Positions 6,266-62,860 of a DNA stretch of 64,000 bases are shown piece after piece. Made by a program: the position numbers and the translations under genes. Numbering within the stretch: the stretch's first letter is position 1; every line of letters begins with the position of its first letter. Below the pieces are notes generated by a model. The model was not told the origin of the DNA and ran no database searches. It saw nothing but the letters and a program-made list of their open reading frames with translations. Origin of the DNA: Eledone cirrhosa (Eukaryota); NCBI GenBank assembly GCA_964016885.1, contig OZ024753.1, positions 29,512,001 to 29,576,000 of the forward strand, given 5' to 3'.

Positions 6266-7966
6266 GATTTAATTATAGAGAGTGGATGGTTAGAACACGT
6301 ATTTACATATTTAAGGTTCTCATTTAGTTTATATGTAAATACGAGTTCTAACCATCCACTTTCTATAATTAAATCCATCCCTAGAAATGTTTCTCTTAGA
6401 ATCTCCCGCCTGTCGTCCAACCAACAAACCTTCAAAGAACATGCCGAATATTATGATGATGCACTTAGGAAGGCCGGACACCTAGATAATATAGAGTATA
6501 TAGTCGAAGATCACCAAAACACCCAAAATAAATCCCATAGGGGTAGAAATAGCACAGAATCACCACCATACATACACTACCGCAATAGACACAATAATAG
6601 TCGCACACCACCAAACAGAAGGCGATGTAAAGAGTATATATGGTACAACCCGGTCTATAACAACTCTATTAAAACCAATCTACCCTCACAATTCTTTCGA
6701 TTAGTTAAAAAACACTTTCCAACATCACATAAATATAATAAAATCTTAAACCCTAACACTATTCGACTTTCATATTCAACCGCCTCTAATATTGAACAAC
6801 ATATAAAAAAGCTTAACGCAAAACGGTTGTATAAACGCCTTCCAACACATAACAATACACGTAAAACATTAGCTATAACATCACAAAACAACAAACAACA
6901 TCCCGTCCTACCTAAGCAACCTCATCAACCCATCCATGCCAATACAACAACGCAAAATTATAACTGTAACTGTGTCCAACCAGGAATGTGTCCGTTGAAC
7001 GCAACATAATATACAAATGTACTATCGAATCGGATAGACAGAAGTGGTACTATGTGGGATCTACAGCCACCTCCTTCAAATCACGCCTTTATAGACATCG
7101 TTACTCGATAAAACATGAAAACCAGCGTTATGTAACAACACTCGCAGACAAGGCTTGGCTGCTGCGTGAAAATAACCAACAGTTTAACCTAAAATGGGAT
7201 ATAATAGCAGCTGCCCCTCCATTATCCCACGGACAGGAATTTTGTAAATTATGTAATATGGAATTATTTTGTATTATGAAATCCAAAAACATTTTATTAA
7301 ATAACAGAATAGAGCGATCGTTATACTGTAACCATCGCTTAAAATCTACATTTTCATATTACAAATACTACCAAGATTGAACGCATGTCTCCATCTCCGT
7401 TTGATTGTCAAAATACATATTAACATTCTCTTTTAGTCTTAATTCTATCAACTCTTCTATTATTTACCATTTAATATTAACTGCTATAGATAAAATGAGA
7501 TTTCTTAATTCAATTCCCTAATGCATATACCAGCTGGCTACTAGCATTGATGTTATTCAGTAGCAGTCGAAATCTCCCCCTTCCTTAATTGGACACTTCA
7601 TAATTAATACTTACACCAAATGACCAGCCCTGTCCATTGTTCAATTGGTCAAGTATAGATAAAATAGGCACTCCCAAAAATTCTTATTTAGATAAAATAA
7701 ACCATTTACTCATTGTATTCTCATTAGAAACCCTTTATATACTTGTTTAGCAGTAAATTGAATTACCATCTGTCATATACTATCCTCTCTCTTCTTCCTC
7801 TATTACAACTAATATAAATACTTCAATTTTTCTGATTTTTTCCAATTTATCCAAAATCTCTGAAGAAGTGACAACTGATTATACATTTGCTATCGAATAC
7901 TTGCTAACATTATATGATTACGCAAGCAGCGATACATAGGTATTCCGTCTGTTACAGAAACATCTT

Positions 7967-12499: not shown

Positions 12500-13445
12500 C
12501 TAATGTATATATATATATATGTATATGTATATATGTATGTATGTTTATGTGTATGTACGTATGTATGTAGATATGGATGTATGTGTGTGTGTGTGTGTAT
12601 GTATGTATGGTTATGTATGTATGGTTATGTATGTATGTGTGTATATGTATGTTTGTGTGTATGTGTATGTATGTATGTAGATATGTATGTATGTGTGTAT
12701 ATGTATGTATGTATGTATTTACATACACACACATTTACATACACACACATACATAGTATGTGTGTGTATGTAAATGTGTGTGTATGTATGTATGTTTGTG
12801 TGTATGTGTAAGTATGTATGTTTGTGTGTATATGTATGTATGTATGTTTGTGTGTATGCATGTATGCGTGTATGTATTTATATAGGTATGTATATGAATG
12901 TATGTATATCTGTATGTATATACATATGTAAGCATATATGTATGTATATATGTATTATTTATGTATGTATATATATGTCTATATGTATGTATATATGTGT
13001 GTATATATGTATGTATGTATGTATGTATATATGTATGTATTATCTATGTATGTATTTATGTATGCATATGTGTTTGTATGTATGGATGTATATATATGTA
13101 TGTGTATATATATGTATGTATGTGTGGGTGTGGGTGTATGTATGTATGTGTGTGTGTGTTTGTGTGTGTGTTTCAATATATGGGACGGTGTTAAACAAAC
13201 ATTTTCTATATCCACTTATATAATTTTCTATGGTCCTCTTTTAGTGTCACTTCACTATCCGCAGCCGCCATTTTATTTTTCTCCCTCTTACTCATCTTCA
13301 TATATCATACTTTTTCTCTTGCTATCTCTCTCTCTCTCTGTCTCTCTCTTTGTCTCTCTTACTCTCGCTGTGTCTCTTTCTCTCCCTTTTGCTCTCTCTC
13401 TCGCTCTCTTGTTCTCTCTCTCTCTCTCGCTCTCTCTCTCTCTCG

Positions 13446-13730: not shown

Positions 13731-14040
13731 ATTAATCGATCTATCTATATGCATATTAGATATGCATAAGTAAGTCTTTGAAAATGTATACTCACATATA
13801 TCAATTCGTGGGTATATATTTATTTCCTTTGATATTCGTGTTCGGAGTTTTGTCAACTTTTATCCCAGGGTACGTGGGTGTATTTCGTCAGTTAAAATAT
13901 TCTACATGTAATAGCCTGTATTGATTTACACACATATGTACATATATACACACATACATACATACGGAAATACATACATACGCACATACATACATACGTA
14001 CGTACATACATACACACATACATACATACGTACGTACATA

Positions 14041-17017
14041 CATGGTGAACGAAATAGCTGGCAATTATCTGAAGGCTATACGATCTAAAGGTGTAGAAAC
14101 GACATTTGAAACGCTTAATATTTTGTTATATGTTTCAGCTGTCACATTGCTATCATATAACACACATCTAAAACCACGCAATCAAGATACAAACAGAAAG
14201 CCTGAACCAGCGTGGATGCGAAATTTAAAAACCAAAATTTTGTCCCTGAGACGAAGTATCTCACACATCGCAGTCGTTATGAAATGCAACATAGAGAGCA
14301 ACTTCACACGACACCAGGAAGACCTAAAAAAAGGGTTAGAGAGACGATTTGGAGATACAAAATTTAAAACTTTGAACTCCAAATTACACCAGTTGAAACA
14401 ACAACTCACAGCTACAACAGAAAGACTAAAATATAAGTCAACAGCACATAAACGACAAGTGCTAAATAGATTGTTTGCCAGAGATCCTAAATCAGTTTAT
14501 CGCAGCTTCGGTGGCAAAAGCTCAATCCCTGTAAATGACACCCCTTCAAAAGAACAGGTTGAGAGCTACTGGAGATCGGTATGGGAAACGGATGACGGAT
14601 TCAACAGACAAACTAATTGGCTAAAAGAACTGGAACAGGACTCCTGCCAACATGTCCAGACAAAACAATATGACATAGATGGGTCAATACTGGAAACAGC
14701 TCTACAGAAAATGTCGAATAGGAAATCGCCAGGCCCAGACCTCATTACAGGATACTGGTTGAAGAATTTCACTTTCTATCGGCAAGATCTCATACGGCTG
14801 TTTACAGACACCATTAAAGGCACACAAGAACTGCCCAGATGGTTATCAACTGCCACTACTCTCCTCATTCCCAAAAATAGCCAAACTACCCTTGCTAAAA
14901 ATTACCGCCCAATAGCCTGCCAAAACATCATGTATAAATTATATACTGGGTGCCTTAACCAGTTCTTACAGGATCACTGTGCTACCAACAACATCATAAC
15001 ACCTGAGCAAGCTGGTGGAAAGAGGGGGGGGTGCATAGATCACCTACTAACTAATAAAATGATTCAGGAAAAAACAACAAAGAATCGCAGAAACATGACT
15101 GTGGTGTGGCTGGACTATCAAAAAGCATTTGATAGTGTACCTCATGGGTAGATTATTAAGGCTTTACAGTTAGCCAAAGTCCCACAACCATTGGTAGCTG
15201 CTGTTGAACGCCTGACCAAGAACTGGTACACCAATTTGATCCTTAGAAGTGAGAAAGAGCAAGTTAAGACTGATAAGATACATTACCAGAAGGGCATCTT
15301 TCAGGGTGATAGCTTGTCGGTGCTACTCTTCGTTCTCTCACTGAATCCACTATCTTACCTACTCAGGAAACAAGGTGGACAAAGAAGTGGGTCCAGAAGT
15401 ATCTCCCATCTTTTCTTTGTTGATGACCTGAAGTTGTATGGGCCAAATATCAATGACATCAAGAAACAATTGGACCTCATTACACAATTTTCAACCGACA
15501 TCAAAATGAAATTTGGTGAGTCCAAGTGGGCATATTTGGCAGTAAAACGTGGAAGAGCTGTGCCCTCCTCTAGAAATCTAGAGATGAACGGCCTGACAAT
15601 ACAACCTCTACAGTCAGGTGACAACTACAGATATCTTGGACAGGATGAGAATGTCAGATATGATGGACCCATAAATAAGGAGAGAACCAGAACTGAATAC
15701 CTCAGAAGAGTAAAGAAAATATGGTCATCAGAACTGTCAGCGTACAACAAATACATTGCCCACAATACTTATGCTGTGCCAATTCTAACGCCAACATTTG
15801 GCCTGCTGAACTGGTCATTGCAAGAACTAAGTGATATGGATGTGAGAACTCGCAAACTTCTCAGTGTTACTGGGAACTTTAACATCAATGGTGATGTGGA
15901 TAGGCTATACTTCTCACGCAAGGAAGGTGGCCGGGGTCTAAAATCCATATTAACAACATATGAGACCCGGATAGTAACACTGAAGCAACACCTTCAACAG
16001 AGGAAAAAGGTTGGCAACCATCTTGCCCAGGTTTATGAGCATGAAAAAAAATATATCATTAGAATAGCGACTGATCTGGAGGAGAGATATGGAATAAAGC
16101 CTGATATAAATCTCTCACCCAGAGAAATCGGAAGATCCTATTCAATGTTCAAACAAGATAAAAAAATTGACCAATTTACAGAAAAAGTTGTGCATGGATA
16201 CTTGAGACGTAAAACACAGATCATAGAGGGGATAAACCACTCAAAAATCCTGGCATGGAGTTCCGACAAGTTTATGACATCACACCTTGAGGGATATCTC
16301 TATGCAATACAGGAACAAGAACTCCCTACCAAATATCTGCTGCACAAAAGAGGAGGGCCAGCAGCTGACAATAAATGTAGGCTATGTAAAACAAAGATCG
16401 AGGATGTAAGCCACATTGTTGCCAGCTGCGAAAGAATGTCATCTCGCTACTACCTCCCCATGAGACACGATGGGATAGCTAGAACCATCTGGAACGCACT
16501 TCGGAAAACAAAATTAACAACAAACGAGGAAGAATATATTGAGACAGATGGCACTAAGGAATACTGGTGGAACCTGAAAATAAAAACTGCCACCAAATTA
16601 AAGCACAACCGGCCTGATATTGTTGTTTGGGACCACACATTGAAAACGTGTTCTGTTGTGGAGATCAGCTGCCCAACGTTGTCAGAAAAATACAGGAGAA
16701 GGAGGACACCTACGGACCATTGATGAGGAGTTTACAAATCCAGTATCAAAGATACACCTTTAGCTTCATACCCATCATTGTTGGAGCTACGGGTTATATA
16801 CCAACCCGCTTGGACCAAAGTATGACTGAACTTGGATTTGCGGACAAAAAGCGCAGCTCCCTAATTCATAGTCTACAAATGGCTGCGATAGCTGGCATCT
16901 TCAAAATTTGCAAAACATTCTTGCGATTCAAGGGATGACAATTTCTTTTCTTTTACAACCTTGCCACTAGGAAGGTGGCCGGTCAAAAAAAATATACTCA
17001 AAATTAAGAGAAAGAGA

Positions 17018-17018
<1 letters not shown>
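14041..17018 (+). mobile_element. R4/Dong-like RLE non-LTR retrotransposon, family A, 5'-truncated, in (TACA)n
   Basis: (TACA)n on both sides (~13930-14041 and 17019-17090). RT plus RLE coding region and an ~80-bp 3' UTR. Confidence 0.9.
14042..16938 (+). pseudogene. RT plus restriction-like endonuclease ORF; in-frame TAG at 15149-15151, frameshift near 16673
   Basis: Motifs KSPGPD, NYRPIAC, WLDYQKAFDSVPH, GIFQGDSLS, FFVDDLKLY, CRLC..H...C, RHD and RPDIVVWD..VEISCP. ORFs 14042 and 15191 share a frame. Confidence 0.92.
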
Positions 17019-17048
<30 letters not shown>

Positions 17049-17091
17049 CATACATACATACATACATACATACATACATTCATACATACAT

Positions 17092-17385
17092 GGCGGCTGC
17101 CAACTCGTTTTCGAGTACGGCCACTACTTTATATCCATGTAGGAGAACACCTACCGATGCGCTGAACGAGTGTGACTTTTTAGTCCGGCCAGCGACTTGA
17201 AAACTCTGGTACAAACACTACACTTGTGACAATTATTGACACATAGTGTTGGGCCCATGGTACCATGTGACGACAAGTGCAGAGAGATCTCCAGACATAA
17301 AGCAATGCCTGTGCCGTGAAGCTTTTATAGTGAGCAAAGGCACTGCACAAAGCCAGTCCCACTCTCTTAACCAAGATGATATTTT
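17092..17385 (-). mobile_element. 5'-truncated copy of the RTE-derived bipartite element with (TATG)n tail
   Basis: Near-identical to 28706-28998. The minus strand encodes CHKCSVCTRVFKSLAGLKSHTRSAHR*. Confidence 0.75.
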
Positions 17386-17585
17386 ACATACATACACACA
17401 GACATACATACATACGTACATACATACATTACATACATACACACATACATACATACATACATACATACATACATACGTACATACATACATACATACATAC
17501 ATACATACATACATACACACATCCGTACATACATACATACATACATACATACATACATACATACATACATACATACATACATACA

Positions 17586-19731
17586 TACTGGTCCCCAAGA
17601 ACAAAGACACCCACTTGGCAAAAAACTACCGACCCATTGCATGCCAGAACCTAATGTATAAGATGTATACAGCCTGCCTCAACCTATTCCTCCAAGATCA
17701 CTGTGAAAATAATAACATCATCACAGATGAACAAGCAGCTGGAAAGAAAAGGGTTTGGGGATGTGTTGAACAACTCCTAATCAACAAAACTGCGATGTCG
17801 GAGGTGCGACAACTTAGGAGGAATATGACTACAGTCTGGCTGGACTACAAGAAAACTTTCGATTCTGTTCCCCACTCTTGGATGATAAAGGCCCTCCAAC
17901 TTGCTAAAGTCCCAGACATTATTGTCAGAGCCATAGAGAGGCTGTCTTCTTCTTGGGCTACTATCCTAAGGTTAAAGACAGAGAGGGAGGACTCTATTTT
18001 CACTGATAAAATAAAATATTACAGGGGTATATTTCAGGGGGACAGTCTCTCTGTGATATTGTTCATCTTGTCATTAAACCCCTTGTCCTTTCTGCTCAAG
18101 AAATGTGAGGGATACATCATTGGCTCACAGGAGGACAGAAATACGAACCTAACCCATAACTTCTTTGTGGACGATCTGAAACTCTATGCCAAGAACATGG
18201 ATGGGATGAAGAAAAATCTTGACCTGGTTACAACGTTCTCAAAGGATATAGGAATGGAGTTTGGCCAAGATAAATGCTCATACATGACTGTAAAGCGGGG
18301 AAAAACAACAACCCAATCTAGCAACATTGTCATCAATGGTTTAACTGTTTCACCGATATCTGATGAGGACTGCTACAGATACCTGGGGATAGATGAGAAC
18401 ATATCCTATAATGGTATCTGTAATAAAGAACGCCTAACCAGGGAATACTACACCCGATTAAGAAAGATCTGGTCATCGGAACTCTCTGCGCAAAACAAAA
18501 CAGTGGCTCACAATGTGTTTGCTGTGCCTGTCCTAACACCAACGTTTGGAATACTCAATTGGACGATAGACGAAATCCGAGCAGTTGATGTTGGAACTCG
18601 AAAAATACTGAACAACACCGGAAACTTCCACATCAACAGTGACATAGACCGCCTTTACTTGAAACGTAGGCAGGGAGGCAGAGGCCTAACATCAGTCCAG
18701 ACAACATTTGAATGTCACATCATATCTCTCCGACAACATCTACGAACCTCGAAGCGTAGGAGCCCGCTTCTCGAGCAAGTCTATCTGCATGAAACAGATA
18801 AGATCATGAGAGTTGGGAAGGAACTCCTTGAGAGATATTCCCTGTGTGATAATCAAATCTCACACCCAGGGATGTCGCTCAGCAGTATCGCAGTGAATCC
18901 ATGGATGAAAAACTGCATGCCTATCAGCAAAAAGTCATGCATGGATATGTTGCCAGGAAGCTTCAGAGTGAGAGTAATATAGATAAGGAAAGTAGTCTAT
19001 CTTGGACCAACAACCGCTATATTGGCTCTCACTTTGAAGGATACGCTTTTGCAATCCAAGAACAGGAGATTAGAACGAAATACCTGATTCACAAAAGAGA
19101 TAGGGATGCAGTCAAAACACCTAGATGTGACAACAAGTGCAGACTCTGCAGAACTAACATCGAGGATATCACCCATGTCATCAGCAGCTGCCCAAAGATG
19201 TCATCGCGGTACTATCTACCTATGAGGCATGATGTAGTGGCCAAAACACTGTACAATGCAGTTTGTAAAAAAGATAGCCCCGATGATAAACACATTAAAA
19301 GCTACAACAATGTGGAAGACATCCGTGTACATAATATGAAAGAGTACTGGTGGAATGTTCCAGTAAAAACCCCAATAAAATGCAGGCATAACAGACCAGA
19401 TATTATGATATGGGACAGGGAGAAGAAAACATGCACAGTAGTGGAAATTAGCTGCCCAGCAGATGCCAATATAATATCAAAGATTAGTGAAAAGGAGAAT
19501 ATTTATGCAGAACTGATGAGAAATCTGCAGATACTCCACCCTGATTACACCTTCAGATTTATGCCTGTGGTTATTGGGGCACTGGGATATGTTAGTAACT
19601 GCCTCAATACAAATCTTGAGAAGCTAGGCTTCACAGGAACAGAAAGAACACAACTAGTTAGGAAATTACAAGTACAATCCATTAATGGAACAGTAAAAAT
19701 ATGTAAAACATTGCAAAAATGTTGCATCTAA
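17586..19731 (+). pseudogene. RT plus RLE ORF, frameshift near 18860
   Basis: Motifs NYRPIACQN, GIFQGDSLS, FFVDDLKLY, CRLC..H...C, RYYLPMRHD and HNRPDIMIWD..VEISCP. Confidence 0.92.
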
Positions 19732-19964
19732 TAACTGCATATACACATGCACAGATACAAAGCATATACACATGCACACATACAACTCAAAACATATACA
19801 CCCACACATACAATAACATCCATATCTACACATGCATGCATGCAGACATACATACATATCTACCTAGTTGATGTGTAAATTCCAATGAGAGAGTCTTGTG
19901 TCTATGTTAGAAACCGACTCTCTCTCTATTGGTAAAACTTTGTGAAATTATAAAACCAGAAGAA
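17586..19964 (+). mobile_element. R4/Dong-like RLE retrotransposon, family B, 5'-truncated, in (TACA)n
   Basis: Begins directly after (TACA)n and ends CCAGAAGAA followed by (TACA)n. 3' UTR shared with the 29406-29900 copy. Confidence 0.92.
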
Positions 19965-20244
19965 TATACATACATACATACATACATACATACATACATA
20001 CATACATACATACATACATACATACATACATACATACATACATACATACATACATACATACATGCTGATGTAATTGGAAATCATCATGCAGGAGTTTTAT
20101 CGAAAAAAATGTAATGTAATAAGAAATGTTTTGAAGATCCAGAACGGAAAAAGTAAGCTTTGCCAACATCAATTTTTTTTGCATGTTATAAAGATATCCT
20201 TTTTATGCATATACCTGGTTCGCTTTTCGATACCCTTTTCCCTT

Positions 20245-22367: not shown

Positions 22368-23858
<1,491 letters not shown>

Positions 23859-23912
23859 TATTCAATTCTTTATCAATTTAGAATCTTTTCTCAAAGCACA
23901 TATACATACACC

Positions 23913-24355
23913 TCTTTAAAATATACCCATCTACCTTACTTTAAAGGGCATTATACACTCTATAATACTCGTTTACTCATTACCCTCATCCTATCTTCTC
24001 GTAAAACAATAACATTTGTTTTTGACATTTTGAATATTCATCCGCAATCATTATTATTTTTTTTTTTTCCCTCTATCATAAATCTTTTTAATCTCAATTT
24101 CATCCTTAATTTATTATTATATATATTTTTTTTTTAATATATACTCATATATTCTTTAAAATATACCCATCTACCTTACTTTAAAGGGCATTATACACTC
24201 TATAATACTCGTTTACTCATCACCCTCATTCTATCTCCTCGTAAAACAATAACATTTGTTTTTGACATTTTGAGTATTCATCCGCAATCATTATTATTTT
24301 TTCTCTCTATCATAAATCTTTTTAATCTCAATTTCATCCTTAATTTATTATTATT
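23913..24355 (+). repeat. Direct duplication (~240-bp period) in the PLE 3' region
   Basis: 23913-24118 matches 24153-24355. A second, more diverged pair lies at ~24557-24740 and 24785-24950. Confidence 0.85.
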
Positions 24356-25067
24356 TTTTTCTCCCCATCAACGAACTCATTATTAATACATATGAATTCA
24401 ATATACAAACTTTAACTTCACATTATTTTTCTCAAATCCTTCTACACATAAACTTTTTCTCTTTGCTAATTTTAAAATTCCTACATTTCTTCTTTTGACG
24501 TTAGAATATTCACCCACAATTATTATTTTTTTCTCTCTATCTTCATACACAATTTCCCTTCGTTAATTTTCAAATTCCTTTAATTTATACATTATCTTCC
24601 AACGGTTCCCAACCTCTCTATATTAAAACATTATATCTTTTTCTCAGTTATAAAAACTATCTCTTTCTCTCTATCACCCATCTCTCCCTTTCCACCTTCA
24701 CTCTCATCTCCTCCCCTTTTTTTCATCCTTTCCAACCCCCCCCCCTCCCTAAATATAATATATTTTTTCCTCGCACATATCCTCCCTTCGTTAATTTTCA
24801 AAATTTTTAATTTATACAGTATCTTCCAACGGTTTTCAACCCCTCTATATAAAATATATCTCCTCTCAGTTATAAAAACTATCTCTTTCTCTCTATCACC
24901 CATCTCTCCCTCTCATCTCCTTCCCTTTTCATCCTTTTCTCTCCCCCCCCTCTCTAAATAAAATATGTTTCCCAATATCACACATCAATCTAAAACCACT
25001 TTTCATATGTTGATTTAAAACTGCACTATCAACAAGTGTTTTTTTAGCCTTCATATCATGTTCTCCT

Positions 25068-27877: not shown

Positions 27878-28387
27878 TACTTGAAATTTAATCTCAAACT
27901 ATTCAATATCAATGACAACCGCATCAATTATTTGCATCCAGTTAAACAAATCCTCTCGTTTCAACATTATCCAAAGAGCCTCTTAATAAATATCAATAAT
28001 GACATTCGATGATTCCGACACACTAATAAATGAAGATATATAAGTATTTTGTCCTGGTAAACAATAAAATACACCAACATAAACTAATTACTTTTAAAAT
28101 GAATTAACTGTCATATCTTACAAGAATGAAAGTATTTTCGAAAACATTAATGTGAAAAACAAAATTATTTATCCATTCATTTTTACACACGCACGCTATA
28201 TACTGTCTGTTATAATTTGTAAATTAACGTAACACGATGGAAATTTTGTATTATTGCTGACAGGTATAAGCTAATCACTGTCAGCAATACATCAATATAA
28301 GTGTAAATGAGTATATATGCTGATATAAGCTTATATACAGCCAGCCAACTATCCACCATACACACACAAATACGTACATACATACAT

Positions 28388-28644
28388 GATGGCTGCAAAC
28401 TCTGCTAAGAGTAGTGCAATCGCTTGTAACAGATCCTGAACAAGTAATGCCTGTGCTTCGAAGGCTTTTTAAGTGGGGAAAGGCCTTGCACTCGACCAAT
28501 CCCACGAAAAGGAGAACTTGTCAACATCGGATGCTTCCGAACCGAAGGGGGTTTTTTTTCAGAGTTTCCCTCTCCTAGAAAGGTGTTGCGACAACTAGGG
28601 GCCTTTCACTCCCAGGTGGAAAAGAAATCTACTATTTGAAAGGA
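28388..28644 (-). mobile_element. Shorter relative of the RTE-derived bipartite element, in (TACA)n
   Basis: Shares TGGCTGC.AACTC, AATGCCTGTGC, GTCAACATC and CAGAGTTT.CCTCTCCTAGA with 28706-29310. Confidence 0.6.
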
Positions 28645-28705
28645 TACATACATACATACATACATACATACATACATACATACATACATACATACATACA
28701 TACAT

Positions 28706-29310
28706 GGTGGCTGCCAACTCGTTTTCGAGTACGGCCACTACTTTATATCCATGTAGGAGAACCTCTACCGATGCACTGAACGAGTGTGACTTTCTAGTCC
28801 AGCCAGTGACTTGAAAACTCTGGTACAAACACTACACTTGTGACAATTATTGACACATAGTGTGGGCCCATGGTACCATGCGACGACAAGTGCAGAGAGA
28901 TCTCCAGATATAAAGCAATGCCTGTGCCGTGAAGCTTTTATAGTGAGCAAAGGCACTGCACAAAGCCAGTCCCACTCTCTTAACCAAGATGATATTTACC
29001 AAAAAGAAGAACAAGTCAACATCATTGGATACCATCAGGGTTGCAGGTGTTATATCAGAGTTTTCCTCTCCTAGAATTCTGCCTTGACAAAGGCTAAGGG
29101 GTCATCTCTCCCGGTGATTTTGGATGGCCATTGACTCTTAAGAGCTCCTTTGCCCTTTGACAGGTTTTTTTTTAGTCCTGCAGGATGTCCAAAGTCACCC
29201 TCCTCACCAAGAAACCTTGGTGGGGTTGCCAGTTTAGTCGCCAACGAGCCGACCATGAGACAGGTTGTACTGGGATACATGTTACCAGTAGCACCAACTG
29301 GTGACCTGAC
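28706..29310 (-). mobile_element. Non-autonomous RTE-derived bipartite element (~605 bp) with (TATG)n tail
   Basis: Structured GC-rich 5' part joined to a C2H2-like terminus HKCSVCTRVFKSLAGLESHTRSVHR* and a short 3' UTR. (TACA)n on both sides. Second copy at 17092. Confidence 0.75.
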
Positions 29311-29405
29311 ATACATACATACATACATACATACATACATACATACATACATACATACATACATACATACATACATACATACATACATACATACATACAT
29401 ACATA

Positions 29406-29900
29406 CAGCAGATGCCAATATAATATCAAAGATTAGTGAAAAGGAGAATATTTATGCAGAACTGATGATAAAATCTGCAGATATTCCACCCTGATTACAT
29501 TTCAGATTTATGCCTGTGATTATTGGGGCACTGGAATATATTAGTAACTGCCTCAATACAAATCTTGAGAAGCTAGGCTTCACAGGAACAGAAAGAACAC
29601 AACTAGTTAGGAAATTACAAGTACAATCCATTAATGGAACAGTAAAAATATGTAAAACATTCCAAAAAATGTGTACATATACACATGTACAGATGCAAAG
29701 CATATACACATGCACACATACAACTCAAAACATACACATCCACACATACAATAACATCCATATCAACACATGCATGCATGCATACATACATATCTACCTA
29801 GTTGATGTGTAAATTCCAATGAAAGAGTCTTGTGTCTATGTTAGAAACCGACTCTCTCTCTCTATTGATAAAACTTTGTGAAATTATAAAACCAGAAGAA
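29406..29900 (+). mobile_element. 3' fragment of Dong-like family B in (TACA)n
   Basis: Near-identical to ~19456-19964 (ADANIISKISEKENIYAEL...GTVKICKTF plus 3' UTR). Confidence 0.9.
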
Positions 29901-29931
29901 CATACATACATATATATATATGTGTGTGTGT

Positions 29932-30053
<122 letters not shown>

Positions 30054-51135: not shown

Positions 51136-51963
51136 GAAAATTGTGCAACCAACATGCTGTTGGTCAACTTCTGGAGTCGATAAATTAAAATATCTGTCAT
51201 GTATTAGGGTCGATGTAATCGACTTTTCTTTCCCTATTAATTAATGACCTTGTGCTTAAATTAGAAATCATTATCTAGAGATTACATATTTAGACTCTTG
51301 CATAAGGAATATTTAAATTACATAAAAAATGTTTATAGTTCTTTTATATTGTTCTTTATAAATACATAGTATTTATGTTAATAATCTTCCATATATATTT
51401 CAGAGTGTGCCAACTCAAGCTAAAGAAATAATACCGTAAAAAACATATATTCCAGTGATGTTAATACTCCCAATCTAACCAAACGGTGAGTGTTGTTTTG
51501 GGAAATTGCCCGAATATTACAAAGCAAATTGCCATCATTTTTTTAACGTGTTACAAAATTGAATATTTAACAATATAAAAACCTCCAGATTTATAGATCG
51601 GTATTGAAAACGGTTAACCAACAAGATTTTCTCAAAGTTTTAGCGAAGTATATGTGGAATAATTACGTTTGGTGGTCACACCTATAATGTACCAGTATTT
51701 TAGCGTACTTGACTTTTGATACAATCTTAAGAAAATAGTGAAAATTGTCATTGTCCTTGTGTTGAAAAGTTCAGAAGACCAATTCTTTTTTACTTATTCG
51801 GATGTTATATTCCCTGGTTGCTCGTTCTTTTTTTATAAATTCCATCATAAGATAGATATATTTTCATTTATCCCTACGTATTTGTAGCAGCCCTTGTCAG
51901 ATACTTGTGAAACAATCAGTCCATTGATAGAGATATTGCTAGATTGATATATATTTCACCATC

Positions 51964-52022
<59 letters not shown>

Positions 52023-52032
52023 GTAACAATGA

Positions 52033-54291
52033 AACTCTTAAGGGGCAAGCCAAAAAACTAACCAACTGGAAATCACCAGGCCCAGATGGTGTGCAGGGGT
52101 ATTGGATTAAACATTTAACATCCCTCCACCCGAAGCTGACGGCCATGTTCAATGACTGCTTGGTGTCGGGTGAGGTGCCAGAGTGGTTGACAAAAGGTAC
52201 CACAGTTCTGATAATGAAAGACCGAATCAAGGGTAATGATGTTACCAACTATAGACCTATCACATGTCTGCCCGTAATGTGGAAACTGTTGACGAGCATT
52301 GTGTCTGAGGAAATCTACCATCACCTCCACACAAACAACTTGTTGCCGGACGAACAGAAAGGATGCCGAAAGAAGTCACGTGGTACAAAGGACCAGTTGC
52401 TTATTGATAAGATGGTAATGGGGAATTGCAGGAGGAGACACACTGATCTTGCCATGGGATGGATAGACTACAGAAAGGCATTTGACATGGTGCCTCATTC
52501 CTGGATCACCAAAAGCCTGGAGATCTTCAGGGTGGCAGATAACATCAGACAGTTGCTGGGCAGGAGTATGGGGTCCTGGGAGACAGAGTTGACACCAACT
52601 GGAGTATCCTTGGGAAGCGTGAAGATCAAGAGAGGTATCTTCCAGGGAGATAGCCTGTCCCCTCTGTTGTTTGTCCTTGCCCTGATGCCCTTGACCATTA
52701 TGCTGCGAAAAGTGAGAGCAGGATACAAGTTGGGAAGGGGAGAGCTTACCATCAATCACCTCCTCTTCATGGACGATCTTAAGCTCTTCGGGAAAAGTGA
52801 GAAGGAGTTGGATGTGCTTGTTGACACTGTCCGTATTTTCAGCAGTGATATATGTATGCAGTTTGGTATTGGTAAATGTGGAGTCATTGTGATGAGGAGG
52901 GGTAGGTTGAGCAGAAGTAACGGGATCCAGATACCAACAGGTGAGATGATAAAGGAAATTGACTCTGAGGAAGGATACAAGTATTTGGGCGTTCTGGAGG
53001 CTGATGGCATAAAGAACAAAAAAATGAAGGAATTGTTAAGAACTGAATACATTCGGAGAGTAAGGAGCGTATTGAAGTCACATCTGAACAGCAGAAATGC
53101 CATAAGCGCAGTAAATTCCCGAGCTGTGTCTATTATTAGGTACAGTGCGGGAATTCTGAGATGGAATGTTGCTGAACAAAAAGAAATGGATAGGAAGACT
53201 AGGAAGCTATTGACTATCTACAACATGTTCCACAAGAGGAGTGATGTCGATAGACTCTACCTAAGGAGATCTGAGGGTGGAAGAGGTCTTATCAGCATAG
53301 AGGACTGTGTTCAGATGGAGAAAAACAACCTATACAAATACGTGACCTATAGTAAGGAGCCAATGCTCAGAGCTGTACTGAAGGAGGGGACAGTAGGCCA
53401 GGGGATATCCAAGGAGGAAATAACATCAAGGAGGAAGAGCAGCCTTAAGGGAAAATCCCTTCATAGTACCTTCTTTGAGAAAACTGAATTTAGAGATCCA
53501 CAGACATGGAACTGGTTGAGAAGAGGAGACCTCAAAAAGGCTACAGAAGGAATGCTAATGGCTGCGCAGGAGCAGGCCCTCAAAACGAAGTGGTTGAAGC
53601 ACCATATCTACAAGGAGGAGGCTAGCCCACTGTGCAGGATCTGTGGAGAGAGAGAGGAGACTGTGGCTCACATTGTGTCCGAGTGTAAACACCTAGCCCA
53701 GACCCACTATAAGGGCTGGAGACACGATGTGATGGGAAGGGTGATCCACTGGCACCTATGCAAAGTAAACAATCTACCACATTCTGAGAAATGGTATGAG
53801 CATAGGCCAGAGGCGGTGATGGAGAACAGTCAGGTGAAGGTGCTGTGGGATTTTAGGATACAGACGGACAAAAAACTGGAACACAATAGACCTGACCTGG
53901 TGGTTGTGGACAAAGAAAAAAGATCGTGCCTGATTGTGGATGTGGCCTGCCCGTTCGACACGAGAGTGCAAGAGAAGGAGAGGGAGAAAATTAACCGATA
54001 CCAGGACCTAAAGTGGGAGGTGAAAAGGATTTGGAACTGCCATGAAGTCAAAGTGATCCCGATTGTCATAGGCGCACTGGGGACTATCTCCAAAGGTTTC
54101 CAGGGATGGTTAAAGAAAATCGGCCCCTTCACGCTTTTTGGAACGCTTCAAAAGGCATGCTTGCTTGGAACGGCAAGAACCCTCCGATACGTCCTGAATA
54201 TCTGAGGCTGCAGGTAGTGGCTTGATATTCAATCCAACGGACTTTCCAGTTAACCAACATCAATGACTGAGATTCAAGGAATAACAATAAC
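52033..54291 (+). mobile_element. Dong/R4-like RLE retrotransposon, family D, 5'-truncated, in (TAA)n with a 17-bp TSD
   Basis: AATAATAGTAACAATGA at 52016-52032 and 54292-54308. Confidence 0.93.
52034..54205 (+). CDS. RT plus restriction-like endonuclease, uninterrupted ~720 codons, N-terminus missing
   Basis: Motifs KSPGPDG, NYRPITCL, WIDYRKAFDMVPH, GIFQGDSLSP, LFMDDLKLF, CRIC..H...C, RHD and RPDLVVVD..VDVACP. The poly-N start in the ORF track is the target repeat. Confidence 0.9.
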   Translation, partial: TLKGQAKKLTNWKSPGPDGVQGYWIKHLTSLHPKLTAMFNDCLVSGEVPEWLTKGTTVLIMKDRIKGNDVTNYRPITCLPVMWKLLTSIVSEEIYHHLHTNNLLPDEQKGCRKKSRGTKDQLLIDKMVMGNCRRRHTDLAMGWIDYRKAFDMVPHSWITKSLEIFRVADNIRQLLGRSMGSWETELTPTGVSLGSVKIKRGIFQGDSLSPLLFVLALMPLTIMLRKVRAGYKLGRGELTINHLLFMDDLKLFGKSEKELDVLVDTVRIFSSDICMQFGIGKCGVIVMRRGRLSRSNGIQIPTGEMIKEIDSEEGYKYLGVLEADGIKNKKMKELLRTEYIRRVRSVLKSHLNSRNAISAVNSRAVSIIRYSAGILRWNVAEQKEMDRKTRKLLTIYNMFHKRSDVDRLYLRRSEGGRGLISIEDCVQMEKNNLYKYVTYSKEPMLRAVLKEGTVGQGISKEEITSRRKSSLKGKSLHSTFFEKTEFRDPQTWNWLRRGDLKKATEGMLMAAQEQALKTKWLKHHIYKEEASPLCRICGEREETVAHIVSECKHLAQTHYKGWRHDVMGRVIHWHLCKVNNLPHSEKWYEHRPEAVMENSQVKVLWDFRIQTDKKLEHNRPDLVVVDKEKRSCLIVDVACPFDTRVQEKEREKINRYQDLKWEVKRIWNCHEVKVIPIVIGALGTISKGFQGWLKKIGPFTLFGTLQKACLLGTARTLRYVLNI

Positions 54292-54311
54292 AATAATAGT
54301 AACAATGATAA

Positions 54312-55590
54312 TAATTGTTTCTACTTTTGCCACAAGGCCAGCAATTACCCTAGTTAATTACTGGTGCTTTATTTTATCGACCCCGTAAGGATGAAAGGCA
54401 AAGTTAACCTCAGAACGTAAAGGGCCGTAAATTTATGTCGGGGAACATGATGTCTGACGCTCTACCGTTACTACTAATAATAATAATGGTTTCTACTTTA
54501 GGCACAAGGCCAGCAATTATCCAGTACATTACTGGTACTTTATTTTATCGACCCCGTAAGGATGAAAGACAAAGTTAAACTCGGCGGGATTTGAACTCAG
54601 ATCGTAATGGGACGTAACTATGCTAGAAAGCATGGCGTCCAACCCTCTACCGATACTGCCAATTCATATATCTTATATATATTATACTATATATATAGTA
54701 TATGTCTTATATATATTATACTATACTATAATATTATACTATACTACTAATAATAATAATGGTTTCATTTATTGGTCACAAGGGCCGACATATAGGGGAC
54801 AATGCAATAGACGGGGACAGTTGGTGGGTTTTACACAAAAGTCGAGTAAAAAATAGGAAAACAACAACAACAACAATAATAATTGTTTCTACTTTTGGCA
54901 CAAGACCAGCAATTTTCCCAGTGTATTACTGGTACTTTATTTTATCGACCCCATAAGGATGAAAGGCAAAGTTAACCTCGGCGGGATTTGAACTCAGTTC
55001 GTAAAGGGACGTAACTGTACTGCAAAGCATGGCGGCGTCTGACCCTCTACCGATACTGCCAATCCACCACCAATAATAATAATAATAATTGTTTCTACTT
55101 TAGGCACAAGGCCAGCAATTATCCAGTGCATTACTGGTACTTTATTTTATCGACCCCGTAAGGATGAAAGGCAAAGTCAACCTCGGCGGGATTTGAACTC
55201 AGATCGTAATGGGACGTAACTATGCTGGAAAGCATGGCGTCCGACCCTCTACCGATACTGCCAATCCAAATACGAGACAAATATTTCTGTACTCGGAAAT
55301 TAATGTCTATAGTTCAGCTATTCACAAAAAAAAAGAAAATATTATTTTTGCCAAAGACTGGATATACACAGAACTAATCGATGAGAGGAACGAGAACAAT
55401 ATATAACAGAATGGCAAATACCATATAACGTATAACAGTAATAATTGTTTCGACTTTTGGCACAAGGCCAGCAATTACCCAGTACATTACTGGTACTTGA
55501 TTTTATCGACCCCGTAAGGATGAAAGGCAAAGTTAACCTCGGCGGAATTTGAACTCAGATCATAAAGGGACGTAACTCTATGCTTCAAAG
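54312..55590 (-). mobile_element. Cluster of five co-oriented SINE copies
   Basis: Copies at ~54312-54470, 54486-54665, 54880-55070, 55085-55265 and 55441-55590. Confidence 0.9.
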
Positions 55591-55692
55591 CATGGTGGTG
55601 GTGGTGGTGGTGGTGGAGGCATAAAGTATATATAGAGAAAAGTAAGAATAACGAAAGGGCTGAACAAATTGAAAACGATAAAGTTGAACTGA

Positions 55693-57626: not shown

Positions 57627-60600
57627 AAACACACACTAGTGCAGTGACACATACATACATATATATGTAGAGACATAAACACACACTAGTGCAGTGACAC
57701 ATACATACATACATATATATGTAGAGACATAAACACACACTAGTGCAGTGACACATACATACATATATATGTAGAGACATAAACACACACTAGTGCAGTG
57801 ACACATACATACATACATATATATGTAGAGACATAAACACACACTAGTGCAGTGACACATACATACATATATATGTAGAGACATAAACACACACTAGTGC
57901 AGTGATATACACATACATACATATATATGTAGAGACATAAACACACACTAGTGCAGTGGCATACACATACATACATATATATGTAGAGACATAAACACAC
58001 ACTAGTGCAGTGACATACACATACATACATATATATGTAGAGACATAAACACACACTAGTGCAGTGACACATACATACATACATATATATGTAGAGACAT
58101 AAACACACACTAGTGCAGTGACACATACATACATATATATGTAGAGACATAAACACACACTAGTGCAGTGATATACACATACATACATATATATGTAGAG
58201 ACATAAACACACACTAGTGCAGTGGCACATACATATATATGTAGAGACATAAACACACACTAGTGCAGTGACATACACATACATACATATATATGTAGAG
58301 ACATAAACACACACTAGTGCAGTGACACATACATACATATATATGTAGAGACATAAACACACACTAGTGCAGTGGCATACACATACATACATATATATGT
58401 AGAGACATAAACACACACTAGTGCAGTGGCACATACATACATATATATGTAGAGACATAAACACACACTAGTGCAGTGGCACATACATACATACATATAT
58501 ATGTAGAGACATAAACACACACTAGTGCAGTGGCATACACATACATACATATATATGTAGAGACATAAACACACACTAGTGCAGTGACATACACATACAT
58601 ACATATATATGTAGAGACATAAACACACACTAGTGCAGTGACACATACATACATACATATATATGTAGAGACATAAACACACACTAGTGCAGTGACACAT
58701 ACATACATATATATGTAGAGACATAAACACACACTAGTGCAGTGATATACACATACATACATATATATGTAGAGACATAAACACACACTAGTGCAGTGAC
58801 ATACACACACATACATATATATGTAGAGACATAAACACACACTAGTGCAGTGACATATACATACATATATATGTAGAGACATAAACACACACTAGTGCAG
58901 TGACATACACATACATACATATATATGTAGAGACATAAACACACACTAGTGCAGTGGCATACACATACATACATATATATGTAGAGACATAAACACACAC
59001 TAGTGCAGTGACACATACATACATATATATGTAGAGACATAAACACACACTAGTGCAGTGGCATACACATACATACATATATACGTAGAGACATAAACAC
59101 ACACTAGTGCAGTGACACATACATACATATATATGTAGAGACATAAACACACACTAGTGCAGTGACACATACATACATATATATGTAGAGACATAAACAC
59201 ACACTAGTGCAGTGACACATACATACATATATATCTAGAGACATAAACACACACTAGTGCAGTGATATACACATACATACATATATATGTAGAGACATAA
59301 ACACACACTAGTGCAGTGGCATACACATACATATATATGTAGAGACATAAACACACACTAGTGCAGTGACACATACATACATACATATATATGTAGAGAC
59401 ATAAACACACACTAGTGCAGTGACATACACATACATACATATATATGTAGAGACATAAACACACACTAGTGCAGTGACACATACATATATATGTAGAGAC
59501 ATAAACACACACTAGTGCAGTGGCATACACATACATATATATGTAGAGACATAAACACACACTAGTGCAGTGACATACACATACATACATATATATGTAG
59601 AGACATAAACACACACTAGTGCAGTGACACATACATACATATATGTAGAGACATAAACACACACTAGTGCAGTGACACATACATACGTATATATGTAGAG
59701 ACATAAACACACACTAGTGCAGTGGCATACACATACATACATATATACGTAGAGACATAAACACACACTAGTGCAGTGACATACACATACATACATATAT
59801 ACGTAGAGACATAAACACACACTAGTGCAGTGGCATACACATACATATATATGTAGAGACATAAACACACACTAGTGCAGTGACACATACATACATACAT
59901 ATATATGTAGAGACATAAACACACACTAGTGCAGTGACACATACATACATACATATATATGTAGAGACATAAACACACACTAGTGCAGTGGCATATACAT
60001 ACATACATATATATGTAGAGACATAAACACACACTAGTGCAGTGGCACATACATACATACATATATATGTAGAGACATAAACACACACTAGTGCAGTGAC
60101 ACATACATATATATGTAGAGACATAAACACACACTAGTGCAGTGACATATACATACATACATATATATGTAGAGACATAAACACACACTAGTGCAGTGGC
60201 ATATACATACATACATATATATGTAGAGACATAAACACACACTAGTGCAGTGACACATACATACATATATATCTAGAGACATAAACACACACTAGTGCAG
60301 TGACATATACATACATATATATGTAGAGACATAAACACACACTAGTGCAGTGGCATACACATACATACATATATATGTAGAGACATAAACACACACTAGT
60401 GCAGTGACACATACATACATATATATGTAGAGACATAAACACACACTAGTGCAGTGACACATACATATATATGTAGAGACATAAACACACACTAGTGCAG
60501 TGACATATACATACATACATATATATGTAGAGACATAAACACACACTAGTGCAGTGACACATACATACATATATATATATGTAGAGACATAAACACACAC

Positions 60601-62860
60601 TAGTGCAGTGACACATACATATATATGTAGAGACATAAACACACACTAGTGCAGTGACACATACATACATATATATGTAGAGACATAAACACACACTAGT
60701 GCAGTGACACATACATATATATGTAGAGACATAAACACACACTAGTGCAGTGACATATACATACATACATATATATGTAGAGACATAAACACACACTAGT
60801 GCAGTGACATATACATACATATATATCTAGAGACATAAACACACACTAGTGCAGTGGCATACACATACATATATATGTAGAGACATAAACACACACTAGT
60901 GCAGTGACATATACATACATACATATATATGTAGAGACATAAACACACACTAGTGCAGTGACATATACATACATATATATCTAGAGACATAAACACACAC
61001 TAGTGCAGTGACATATACATACATATCTATGTAGAGACATAAACACACACTAGTGCAGTGACACATACATACATATATATGTAGAGACATAAACACACAC
61101 TAGTGCAGTGACACATACATACATACATATGTAGAGACATAAACACACACTAGTGCAGTGACACATACATACATATATATCTAGAGACATAAACACACAC
61201 TAGTGCAGTGACACATACATACATACATATATATGTAGAGACATAAACACACACTAGTGCAGTGACACATACATACATATATATGTAGAGACATAAACAC
61301 ACACTAGTGCAGTGACACATACATACATATATATGTAGAGACATAAACACACACTAGTGCAGTGACACATACATACATACATATATACGTAGAGACATAA
61401 ACACACACTAGTGCAGTGACACATACATACATACATATATATGTAGAGACATAAACACACACTAGTGCAGTGGCATATACATACATATATATGTAGAGAC
61501 ATAAACACACACTAGTGCAGTGACACATACATATATATGTAGAGACATAAACACACACTAGTGCAGTGACACATACATACATATATATGTAGAGACATAA
61601 ACACACACTAGTGCAGTGACATACACATACATATATATGTAGAGACATAAACACACACTAGTGCAGTGACACATACATATATATGTAGAGACATAAACAC
61701 ACACTAGTGCAGTGACACATACATACATATATATGTAGAGACATAAACACACACTAGTGCAGTGGCATACACATACATACATATATATGTAGAGACATAA
61801 ACACACACTAGTGCAGTGACACATACATACATACATATGTAGAGGCATAAACACACACTAGTGCAGTGGCATACACATACATACATATATATGTAGAGAC
61901 ATAAACACACACTAGTGCAGTGGCATACACATACATACATATATATGTAGAGACATAAACACACACTAGTGCAGTGACATACACATACATACATATATAT
62001 GTAGAGACATAAACACACACTAGTGCAGTGGCATACACATACATACATATATATGTAGAGACATAAACACACACTAGTGCAGTGGCATACACATACATAC
62101 ATATATATGTAGAGACATAAACACACACTAGTGCAGTGGCATACACATACATACATATATATGTAGAGACATAAACACACACTAGTGCAGTGACATACAC
62201 ATACATACATATATATGTAGAGACATAAACACACACTAGTGCAGTGGCATACACATACATACATATATATGTAGAGACATAAACACACACTAGTGCAGTG
62301 ACATACACATACATACATATATATGTAGAGACATAAACACACACTAGTGCAGTGGCATACACATACATACATATATATGTAGAGACATAAACACACACTA
62401 GTGCAGTGGCATACACATACATACATATATATGTAGAGACATAAACACACACTAGTGCAGTGACACATACATACATACATATATGTGTAGAGACATAAAT
62501 ACACACTAGTGCAGTGGCACATACATACATACATATGTAGAGACATAAACACACACTAGTGCAGTGACATATACATACATATATATGTAGAGACATAAAC
62601 ACACGCTAGTGCAGTGACACATACATACATATATATCTAGAGACATAAACACACACTAGTGCAGTGACACATACATACATATATATCTAGAGACATAAAC
62701 ACACACTAGTGCAGTGGCATATACATACATATATATGTAGAGACATAAACACACACTAGTGCGGTGACATATACATACATATATATCTAGAGACATAAAC
62801 ACACACTAGTGCAGTGGCATATGCATACATACACAGAGAAACACACTAGTGCAACGACAT
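57627..62860. repeat. Satellite, ~100 units of 46-54 bp
   Basis: Constant TAGAGACATAAACACACACTAGTGCAGTG plus a variable (CA/TACA/TA) linker. Confidence 0.97.

Follow-up and report, generated by a model that had tools for sequence, protein, structure and literature searches.

The window analysed here, a 64,000-nucleotide stretch of contig OZ024753.1 of Eledone cirrhosa, contains three 5'-truncated copies of R4/Dong-type retrotransposons (A, B and B2; Table 1). Reading the sequence directly, we upheld the description in the initial annotation that each has sense-strand TACA repeats at both junctions, that the motif RYYLPMRHD occurs in both A and B, and that a further copy, D, has HYKGWRHD and lies within (TAA)n. 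Three truncated copies are indeed present; A and B share one locus, which leaves two independent loci. A and B are 49-58% identical in protein sequence, and B2 is 92.8% identical to B across 511 columns. Copy A carries one stop codon (15149-15151) and one frameshift (about 16673), and its ORF ends at 16938. The candidate target-site duplication of A is weak because only two of its 11 bases are non-repeat bases, and it reaches two bases into X1. D has an exact 17-bp duplication and, on its 3' side, a degenerate run of TAA; the repeated element abutting the right copy is presumably a SINE. Three of the four A/B-clade pieces in the window were flanked by TACA, and the fourth, a decayed internal fragment (51768-51946), is a possible counter-example to TACA targeting.

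Table 1. Features of the window (position 1 is the first base of the 64,000).
Feature	Position	Strand	Remarks
Degenerate (TACA)n array, 5' flank of A	13927..14043	+	22/24 match at junction; putative pre-existing target
Left copy of candidate 11-bp target-site duplication of A, TACATACATGG	14035..14045	+	Last two bases overlap A
Copy A, 5'-truncated R4/Dong-type element	14044..17018	+	RT, CCHC finger, PD-(D/E)xK endonuclease
(TACA)18 array, 74 bp	17019..17092	+	3' tail of A and right duplication copy (17083-17093); also (ATGT)n tail of X1
X1, 5'-truncated copy of RTE-derived non-autonomous element X	17093..17384	-	(ATGT)n at both ends; 96.6% identical to X2
204-bp TACA array	17385..17588	+	Head-to-head: 5' end of X1 on one side, 5' end of B on the other
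Copy B, 5'-truncated, second family	17589..19965	+	One frameshift near 18854; 3' UTR ACAT-rich
Perfect (ATAC)24 array 3' of B	19966..20063	+	Repeat scan; read contigs with (CATA)n behind 19964
Degenerate TACA run, (ATGT)n tail of Y	28357..28387	+	Repeat and junction reading
Y, short RTE-derived non-autonomous element	28388..28643	-	RTE 5'-UTR motif 28559-28579; 3' terminus X-like
Perfect (ATAC)15 array	28644..28705	+	Between 5' end of Y and 3' end of X2
X2, bipartite RTE-derived non-autonomous element	28706..29308	-	RTE 5'-UTR motif 29055-29075; C2H2 zinc-finger remnant near 3' end
Perfect 99-bp TACA array	29309..29407	+	Head-to-head: between 5' ends of X2 and B2
Copy B2, short 5'-truncated copy, family B	29408..29899	+	5' junction with 2-bp microhomology to array
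Three TACA-phase units 3' of B2	29900..29912	+	Followed by TA/TG repeats
Decayed internal A/B-clade fragment, B-like	51768..51946	-	74% identical to B; without TACA flanks
(TAA)19 array	51963..52032	+	Ends in left copy of 17-bp duplication of D (52016-52032)
Copy D, 5'-truncated TAA-type Dong-like element	52033..54279	+	ORF remnant unbroken
Right copy of 17-bp duplication of D	54292..54308	+	Adjoins repeated element with TTA-rich minus-strand end

The TACA arrays of A, B and B2 are also occupied, in the opposite orientation, by the RTE-derived elements X1, X2 and Y, which, like the decayed fragment, the initial annotation had overlooked. An RTE 5'-UTR motif, taken from the PMC5786205 supplement, occurs at two places, one in X2 and one in Y, a count which none of 100 shuffles reached with a pattern drawn up after all three sequences had been seen. 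X and Y resemble the bipartite non-autonomous RTE elements of that source in this motif and in their microsatellite tail, but unlike these they are bordered by the repeat on either side, suggestive of a site preference. The placement of X on the plus strand with a TACA tail was ruled out, since X1 is truncated at its minus-strand 5' side and both the RTE motif and the finger remnant are on the minus strand. The likeness of 14004-14043 to 17385-17428 was set aside as a duplication of X1, because such variants are common in these arrays. A search with the zinc-finger remnant for the autonomous partner of X matched 139 proteins, all through several repeated stretches in the manner of multi-finger proteins, and none was identified as the partner. 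Rfam analysis of 28300-30000 returned only repeat-driven miRNA matches below threshold and no ribozyme.

The reverse transcriptase domain RVT_1 was found in A, B, D and all 30 members of alignment A1, and zf-RVT in 28 of these 30 at E up to 0.5. The C-terminal motifs KCRLC..H..C and NRPD..E..K correspond to a CCHC finger and a PD-(D/E)xK restriction-like endonuclease, and no APE domain appeared among the 25 of 32 domain families listed for the 30-member alignment.

The initial annotation had proposed that a Dong sublineage switched to a TACA target, which is not supported in that wording. First, A and B fell with their relatives into a strongly supported clade, both in a 134-row tree that leaves out L083 and loci shorter than 350 aa (38 rows, SH 100) and in a tree of 45 chosen rows (18 rows, SH-aLRT 100), and this clade stood apart from D and the TAA elements in these trees, which were built without HERO, NeSL, CRE, Rex6 and named Dong references. 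The TAA group excluding the A/B clade had an SH-aLRT of 98 in the 45-row tree. AU tests on the same 45 rows rejected a single host-specific clade of A, B and D (p-AU 2e-42) as well as the union of the A/B clade with the group of D (p 0.006, LG+G4); union with a Bombyx/Euphydryas pair was borderline (p 0.0498, LG+G4). Second, other members of the clade lie in (CTTA)n. Five of 80 metagenomic loci (L001-L005) belonged to the A/B clade, and flanks were readable in two of them, L002 and L005 ending 261 and 398 bases past the ORF and L004 being without ends. The full-length L001, with one ORF of 1153 aa, had (CTTA)n at both ends, and L003 had it at the 3' end, the sole end visible. Thus, the trait looks like targeting of tetranucleotide TAC[A/T] repeats, and from these flanks the A/B clade is likely a TACA/TACT-targeting lineage.

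As a control, 39 non-clade loci reaching the C-terminus carried TAA in 18 cases, TACA or CTTA in no case and none of the three in 21 (11 of which end within 84 bases), counts that are not independent since 32 non-clade rows form one tight family. TAA also stood within 70 bases upstream in 9 of 23 apparently 5'-truncated non-clade loci. Viral contigs gave 30 pattern matches with no relative among them, and GTDB contigs gave three loci, none in the A/B clade. Two loci, L081 and L082, sit in eukaryotic LSU rRNA, and we take them to be R4-type by this insertion site. They gave near-full-length alignments to A, B and relatives (25-28% identity, 251-324 bits); solved R2 proteins gave partial matches of 59-92 bits, obtained with a different program.

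The claim that TACA is a target and more than a tail was supported by the head-to-head arrays, by A's candidate duplication and by two joints in the reads that run head to tail through TACA. Two of the arrays (17385-17588 and 29309-29407) have a 5' end on either side, so neither can be a tail. Family B was high-copy in the reads, with depth climbing toward the 3' end, and (CATA)n stood behind its end (19964) in 62 contigs of run X4, which makes this 3' end family-wide. Two of the joints listed from raw reads ran from a B 3' end through TACA-rich letters into another B copy whose truncated 5' start is at 18693 in one case and 19252 in the other. None of the best 14 'before' loose ends listed from the reads (2985 further rows) carried TACA, in a listing whose method omits some repeats; by eye, most of those listed were diverged-subfamily sequence or mixed consensus, and three resembled foreign non-TACA DNA (X8 at 18621 and 18896, X4 at 18937). 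In Bombyx Dong, self-cleavage occurs exactly at the element's own 5' junction (PMC3774820), so that the 5' array there is target DNA.

We also estimated how readily such an association could arise by chance. The 24 bases preceding the 5' junctions of A, B and B2 matched (TACA)n at 22, 24 and 24 positions, respectively, and 0.77% of the non-element plus-strand positions in the window reach 22 of 24. Sense-strand TACA was present at all three recognisable 5' junctions and at all three 3' junctions. Among 2194 sampled microsatellite positions, plus-strand TACA accounted for 243 (11%), AT for 36% and AC/GT for 18%. With the first locus taken as free, the probability for the second was about 0.008, or 0.11 when microsatellite sites alone were counted, both figures referring to only two independent loci in a window picked for this cluster.

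The N-terminal domain was examined in full-length relatives, A and B being truncated there. A clade profile of this domain matched Bombyx protein P0037 at E 8.5e-9 (presumably Dong itself; its source names the species only). It also hit 14 of 89 proteins outside the clade. A scan of the N-terminal 400 aa of 23 proteins turned up no C2H2 pattern. An R-x-Y ahead of the first Trp of the domain was present in all 22 clade rows and in none of 24 other rows, all of them chosen for having the N-terminus. The domain was modelled as three helices (pLDDT 84; 87.7 for the full-length L001 model), and its best fold matches were DNA-binding domains of the Myb/SANT type, namely Zeste (Z 6.1, rmsd 2.5, 65 residues aligned), TEBP-2 (5.5) and TRF1 (5.3), with middling Z-scores that are all under 8; Foldseek returned no match to the domain at E 0.001. 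The clade N-terminal domain is thus predicted to have a Myb/SANT-like fold, and such a domain has been proposed to steer R4/Dong insertion (PMC7998251). No Rfam family, HDV-like ribozymes included, reached the gathering score in L001 or L003, and A and B are without their 5' ends.

Taken together, it appears reasonably probable that A and B are truncated copies of two families of a separate R4/Dong lineage, inserted in one orientation in TACA, whose protein likely recognises and nicks TAC[A/T] repeats. If the process resembles that of R2 and Dong, the array would be bound by the Myb-like domain at the N-terminus together with its basic arm, the restriction-like endonuclease would nick the (TGTA)n strand, the RNA 3' end in UACA repeats would pair with that strand and prime there, and reverse transcription would frequently end early. 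Joining of the cDNA to the other strand may then make use of 1-4 matching bases and produce a short duplication, of about 11 bp in the case of A. With a tail and a duplication added every time, arrays would grow and attract more insertions, in keeping with the two clusters observed (13.9-20.1 kb and 28.4-29.9 kb). Only tentatively do we extend this to an unnamed deep-branching lineage in several hosts that would target TAC[A/T] through a Myb domain with a basic arm and share (TACA)n with an unrelated RTE family of opposite orientation, the tails of each serving as landing sites for the other and the arrays being built jointly.

A somewhat unlikely alternative is that a nuclease of low specificity leaves the choice of site to the RNA, whose 3' end of UACA repeats would pair with (TGTA)n that is nicked or slipped; insertion would then remain biased in its sites, with the RNA as determinant. 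Because tail and target vary together in every case, sequence alone does not separate guidance by the tail from guidance by the protein. The 3' tail is family-wide, as the 62 contigs indicate, and the 3' UTR of B is ACAT-rich. In addition, these arrays also hold three RTE-derived elements that end in (ATGT)n, one of which is 5'-truncated, and each is oriented as its own tail would predict; their endonuclease is of a different type, which points to a mechanism without a specific nuclease, and microsatellite tails are common in RTE elements (PMC9115989). However, in samples that are unrelated the repeat type (TAC[A/T] or TAA) tracks the protein clade, and the clade has its own arm on a predicted DNA-binding domain of the Myb/SANT type suggested to direct R4/Dong insertion (PMC7998251).

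It is improbable that there is no targeting at all, with broad insertion, copies that survive or get noticed in repeat-rich neutral DNA, and arrays that began as tails, both of the RTE-derived elements and of the copies, and were enlarged by slippage. The small number of loci (two), the fourth clade fragment without TACA, the few non-TACA loose ends and the double role of the 3' array of A as the tail of X1 would all fit such an origin, yet none of the three copies lies in AT or AC/GT repeats, which outnumber TACA, two of the arrays stand head-to-head, and L001 is flanked by repeat on both sides. Least of all do we expect that the 5' arrays are products of the insertion itself and not target DNA, whether through a template jump to a second RNA with a UACA tail or through stuttering during synthesis: the perfect 99-bp array before B2 and the head-to-tail B-B joints, which template jumping would yield too, agree with this, but A has a degenerate 5' array that looks older than the perfect one at its 3' end, and the arrays in front of B and B2 are not preceded by any element body in the same orientation.

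Several known systems lie close to these elements. Dong of Bombyx mori, DongAg, DongBg and the ostracod Dong1/2 likewise have a single RT, a C-terminal CCHC finger with restriction-like endonuclease and a microsatellite at both junctions, and the N-terminal Myb/SANT-like domain is shared with Dong elements as well (PMC7998251). The A/B clade differs from Dong in its target (TACA or CTTA, not TAA), in forming a separate clade in both trees and in the extra R-x-Y arm. D lies in the (TAA)n target and fits TAA-type Dong, whereas A, B and B2 lie in TACA and L001 and L003 in CTTA. R4, which is specific for 28S rDNA in nematodes, has an rDNA target and not a microsatellite. WaldoAg1, WaldoAg2 and WaldoFs1 insert into ACAY microsatellites (PMC3812793), the same target class as that of A and B when compared by repeat unit and not by strand, (TACA)n being equal to (ACAT)n. 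Waldo is APE-type, of the R1 clade by a cited title, whereas A and B have a restriction-like endonuclease, and this would be convergence on one target.

Dong-R4 LINEs are abundant and partly young in octopus, with 51 families and 92.7 Mb in O. vulgaris (PMC13282606, PMC9115989, PMC8967140); they were compared with A and B by description, and the text searched in these sources gives no target sequence for them. The published microsatellite-specific R4/Dong elements are TAA-targeting as far as the literature covered extends, and literature searches, with Repbase and Dfam outside their scope, found no TACA- or CTTA-targeting R4/Dong element. Microsatellite targeting is an established concept. TAA, TACA, TACT and 28S rDNA form a natural series of targets on one protein scaffold, with a short, swappable candidate determinant. 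This series makes it testable how site-specific retrotransposons change target and whether the protein or the RNA tail decides, a question relevant to retrotransposon-based tools for gene insertion. Finally, a TACA-targeting lineage may help account for the abundant TACA arrays in this genome.

Direct reading of the sequence showed that the TACA-flanked copies are a real feature of this DNA. The DNA itself is probably from an octopus. The positions that the initial annotation gave for A, B and B2, three 5'-truncated R4/Dong-type copies, were right to 2-3 bases, and its statement that TACA lies at both junctions on the sense strand is true of all three, each cut at a different 5' point. The array 5' of A is degenerate, and the TACA run 3' of B2 is short (about three units). 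A and B indeed belong to two distinct families, with a protein identity of only 49-58%; B2 is 92.8% identical to B. Likewise, D, the Dong-like comparison copy, does lie in (TAA)n, and its duplication includes non-repeat bases, which shows that D entered an imperfect TAA run already present. D was apparently inserted, in opposite orientation, into the TTA-rich end of an abundant short repeat that we take to be a tRNA-derived SINE (compare A and the tail of X1, below).

Features of the window discussed in the text
Feature	Position	Strand	Remarks
Copy A	14044-17018	+	direct sequence reading
Copy B	17589-19965	+	direct sequence reading
Copy B2	29408-29899	+	direct sequence reading
Copy D	52033-54279		(TAA)19 at 5' end; exact 17-bp duplication
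Element X1	17093-17384	-	likely RTE-derived, 5'-truncated
Element X2	28706-29308	-	likely RTE-derived
Element Y	28388-28643	-	likely RTE-derived
Abundant short repeat	54308-55600		TTA-rich end; ~30 other places
Decayed clade fragment	51768-51946	-	74% to B
Degenerate (ATGT)n array	12503-13157	+	655 bp
Satellite	57640-62790		50/54-bp units
Presumed Penelope-like element	22512-24400		5'-truncated
Older relative of the preceding	6332-7353		

A search with A yielded 359 long proteins, and among the best 120, which were examined, at least 31 grouped with A and B (38-60% identity). The A/B clade comprised 38 of 134 rows in a tree of proteins and loci (SH 100) and 18 of 45 rows in IQ-TREE (SH-aLRT 100), and a separate group united D, a Bombyx protein and every TAA-flanked locus (SH-aLRT 98). 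Under LG+G4, a single clade of A, B and D was rejected (AU 2e-42), as was the joining of the A/B clade to D's group (AU 0.006); its union with the Bombyx/Euphydryas pair was borderline (AU 0.0498). Callosobruchus-named proteins (the group of P0028, P0033 and P0096) formed a third deep branch, distinct from the A/B clade as well as from the TAA group. The outgroup consisted of two loci in LSU rRNA, L081 and L082, presumably R4-type given their insertion site. They are intact RLE elements in eukaryotic 28S rDNA (L081 1-4250, L082 1-4208), the former with a duplication of ~14 bp and an N-terminal Myb-like motif; their contigs are filed in cyanobacterial MAGs and are probably eukaryotic DNA within those assemblies. 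In the domain search every RT-spanning ORF piece matched RVT_1, and CCHC and NRPD..E..K motifs were found in the copies. The initial annotation had proposed a Dong sublineage switched to (TACA)n. Every domain feature of the R4/Dong clade that could be tested is present, and the A/B lineage probably works like Dong, yet it forms a separate clade and is not Dong proper.

Five of the 80 metagenome loci were clade members. L001, a full-length locus, carries (CTTA)n on either side, and L003, from a different branch, has (CTTA)n at its end; this repeat equals (TACT)n, one base different from (TACA)n. L002 and L005 stop 261 and 398 bases past the ORF, short of the ~1,060 bases that separate ORF and repeat in L001 and L003, and L004 lacks either end. 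That spacing is ~80 bases in A and 235 in B. Of the non-clade loci, 39 extend to the C-terminus: 18 of these had TAA, none had TACA or CTTA, and 21 had none of the three, 11 of which end within 84 bases. TAA also stood just upstream in 9 of 23 apparently truncated non-clade loci, a set with crude boundaries and many members from a single family. Five non-clade loci (L040, L043, L047, L024 and L011) are followed by CAA/ACA, CCA or CT repeats or poly(A) instead of TAA, and may differ in target or in tail from the others. A/B represents a separate lineage whose target is likely TAC[A/T] tetranucleotide repeats. The literature searched contained no TACA- or CTTA-specific R4/Dong element; it is quite possible, if the lesser chance, that such a target is already catalogued, for example in Repbase or Dfam.

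As to mechanism, we moderately favor protein-directed nicking with tail-assisted priming, in which, by enzymatic steps that we infer throughout, the element protein would nick the (TGTA)n strand of an array and the RNA tail would assist priming there. Targeting guided by the tail is the strongest alternative, but we consider it rather unlikely. Parts of B were present in nine public runs from five studies; the comparison of reads with B alone used 4 of 13 listed runs. (CATA)n followed the 3' end of B in 62 contigs (agreement 0.64), which makes the tail a feature of the whole family. Contig depth on B in run X4 started at ~104,000 (first bin) and reached 644,000 close to the end of the ORF, the rise that 5' truncation predicts, and B's frameshift was absent from most copies. 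In run X11, 466,335 of 12,467,656 RAD records fell on B, a fraction that depends on where the cut sites lie and cannot be taken as a copy number. At least two joints in reads ran from the 3' end of B through TACA-rich letters back into B, which started at 18693 or 19252; both might also stem from template jumping. Against the target reading, none of the 14 "before" loose ends listed was TACA; by eye, most resembled diverged subfamily sequence or mixed consensus, and three looked foreign. The decayed fragment, the fourth clade piece in the window, had no TACA flank.

Passive accumulation of copies appears improbable. Over the 24 bases leading up to each 5' junction, 22, 24 and 24 positions matched (TACA)n, and 22 of 24 was reached by 0.77% of non-element plus-strand positions, a background that includes the very arrays under study. 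TACA on the plus strand accounted for 243 of 2194 sampled microsatellite positions, and AT for 795. Because A and B share one locus, only two loci should be counted; with the repeat fixed by the first, p for the second is ~0.008, or 0.11 counting microsatellite sites alone. The window was picked for this cluster, and the association is therefore suggestive and no census. The degenerate (ATGT)n array has no element inside, and the satellite, with many TACA runs of 11-17 bp, has no A/B insertion; short TACA runs may be insufficient as targets. The presumed Penelope-like element starts directly after ~250 TA units, and a 240-bp tandem duplication forms its end.

X1, X2 and Y are short elements between the TACA arrays. 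X1 equals X2 with a truncated 5' end (96.6% identity), and X and Y have a common 3' terminus, closed by (ATGT)n. An RTE 5'-UTR motif, as printed in the supplement of PMC5786205, occurs in X2 and Y, which are thus likely RTE-derived non-autonomous elements. A protein search for a partner of X gave uninformative matches. (ATGT)n stands at both ends of all three, truncated X1 included, and they may reflect an APE-type family with a preference for this microsatellite in the orientation opposite to A/B. A 204-bp array separates the 5' end of B from that of minus-strand X1, and a 99-bp array the 5' end of B2 from that of minus-strand X2; given this orientation, neither array can be a 3' tail. We consider it very improbable that insertion itself made the arrays. 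TACATACATGG, present at 14035-14045 and 17083-17093 on either side of A, fits an 11-bp duplication, with just two non-repeat bases, that A would have produced on entering at the border of X1's tail.

Finally, full-length clade proteins begin with a predicted three-helix domain (model pLDDT 84), whose best structural matches were Myb/SANT-type DNA binders (top Z 6.1, middling); a Foldseek search with it gave no match at E 0.001. Such an N-terminal domain is already reported for R4/Dong (PMC7998251). The new part is an R-x-Y arm just upstream, found in all 22 clade rows and in none of the 24 others; a stricter pattern occurred in 16 of 31 clade proteins, several of which lack the N-terminus, and in 0 of 89 others. 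In telomere-repeat Myb domains an N-terminal arm is placed in the minor groove, and by this analogy the R-x-Y arm is a candidate determinant of the target.
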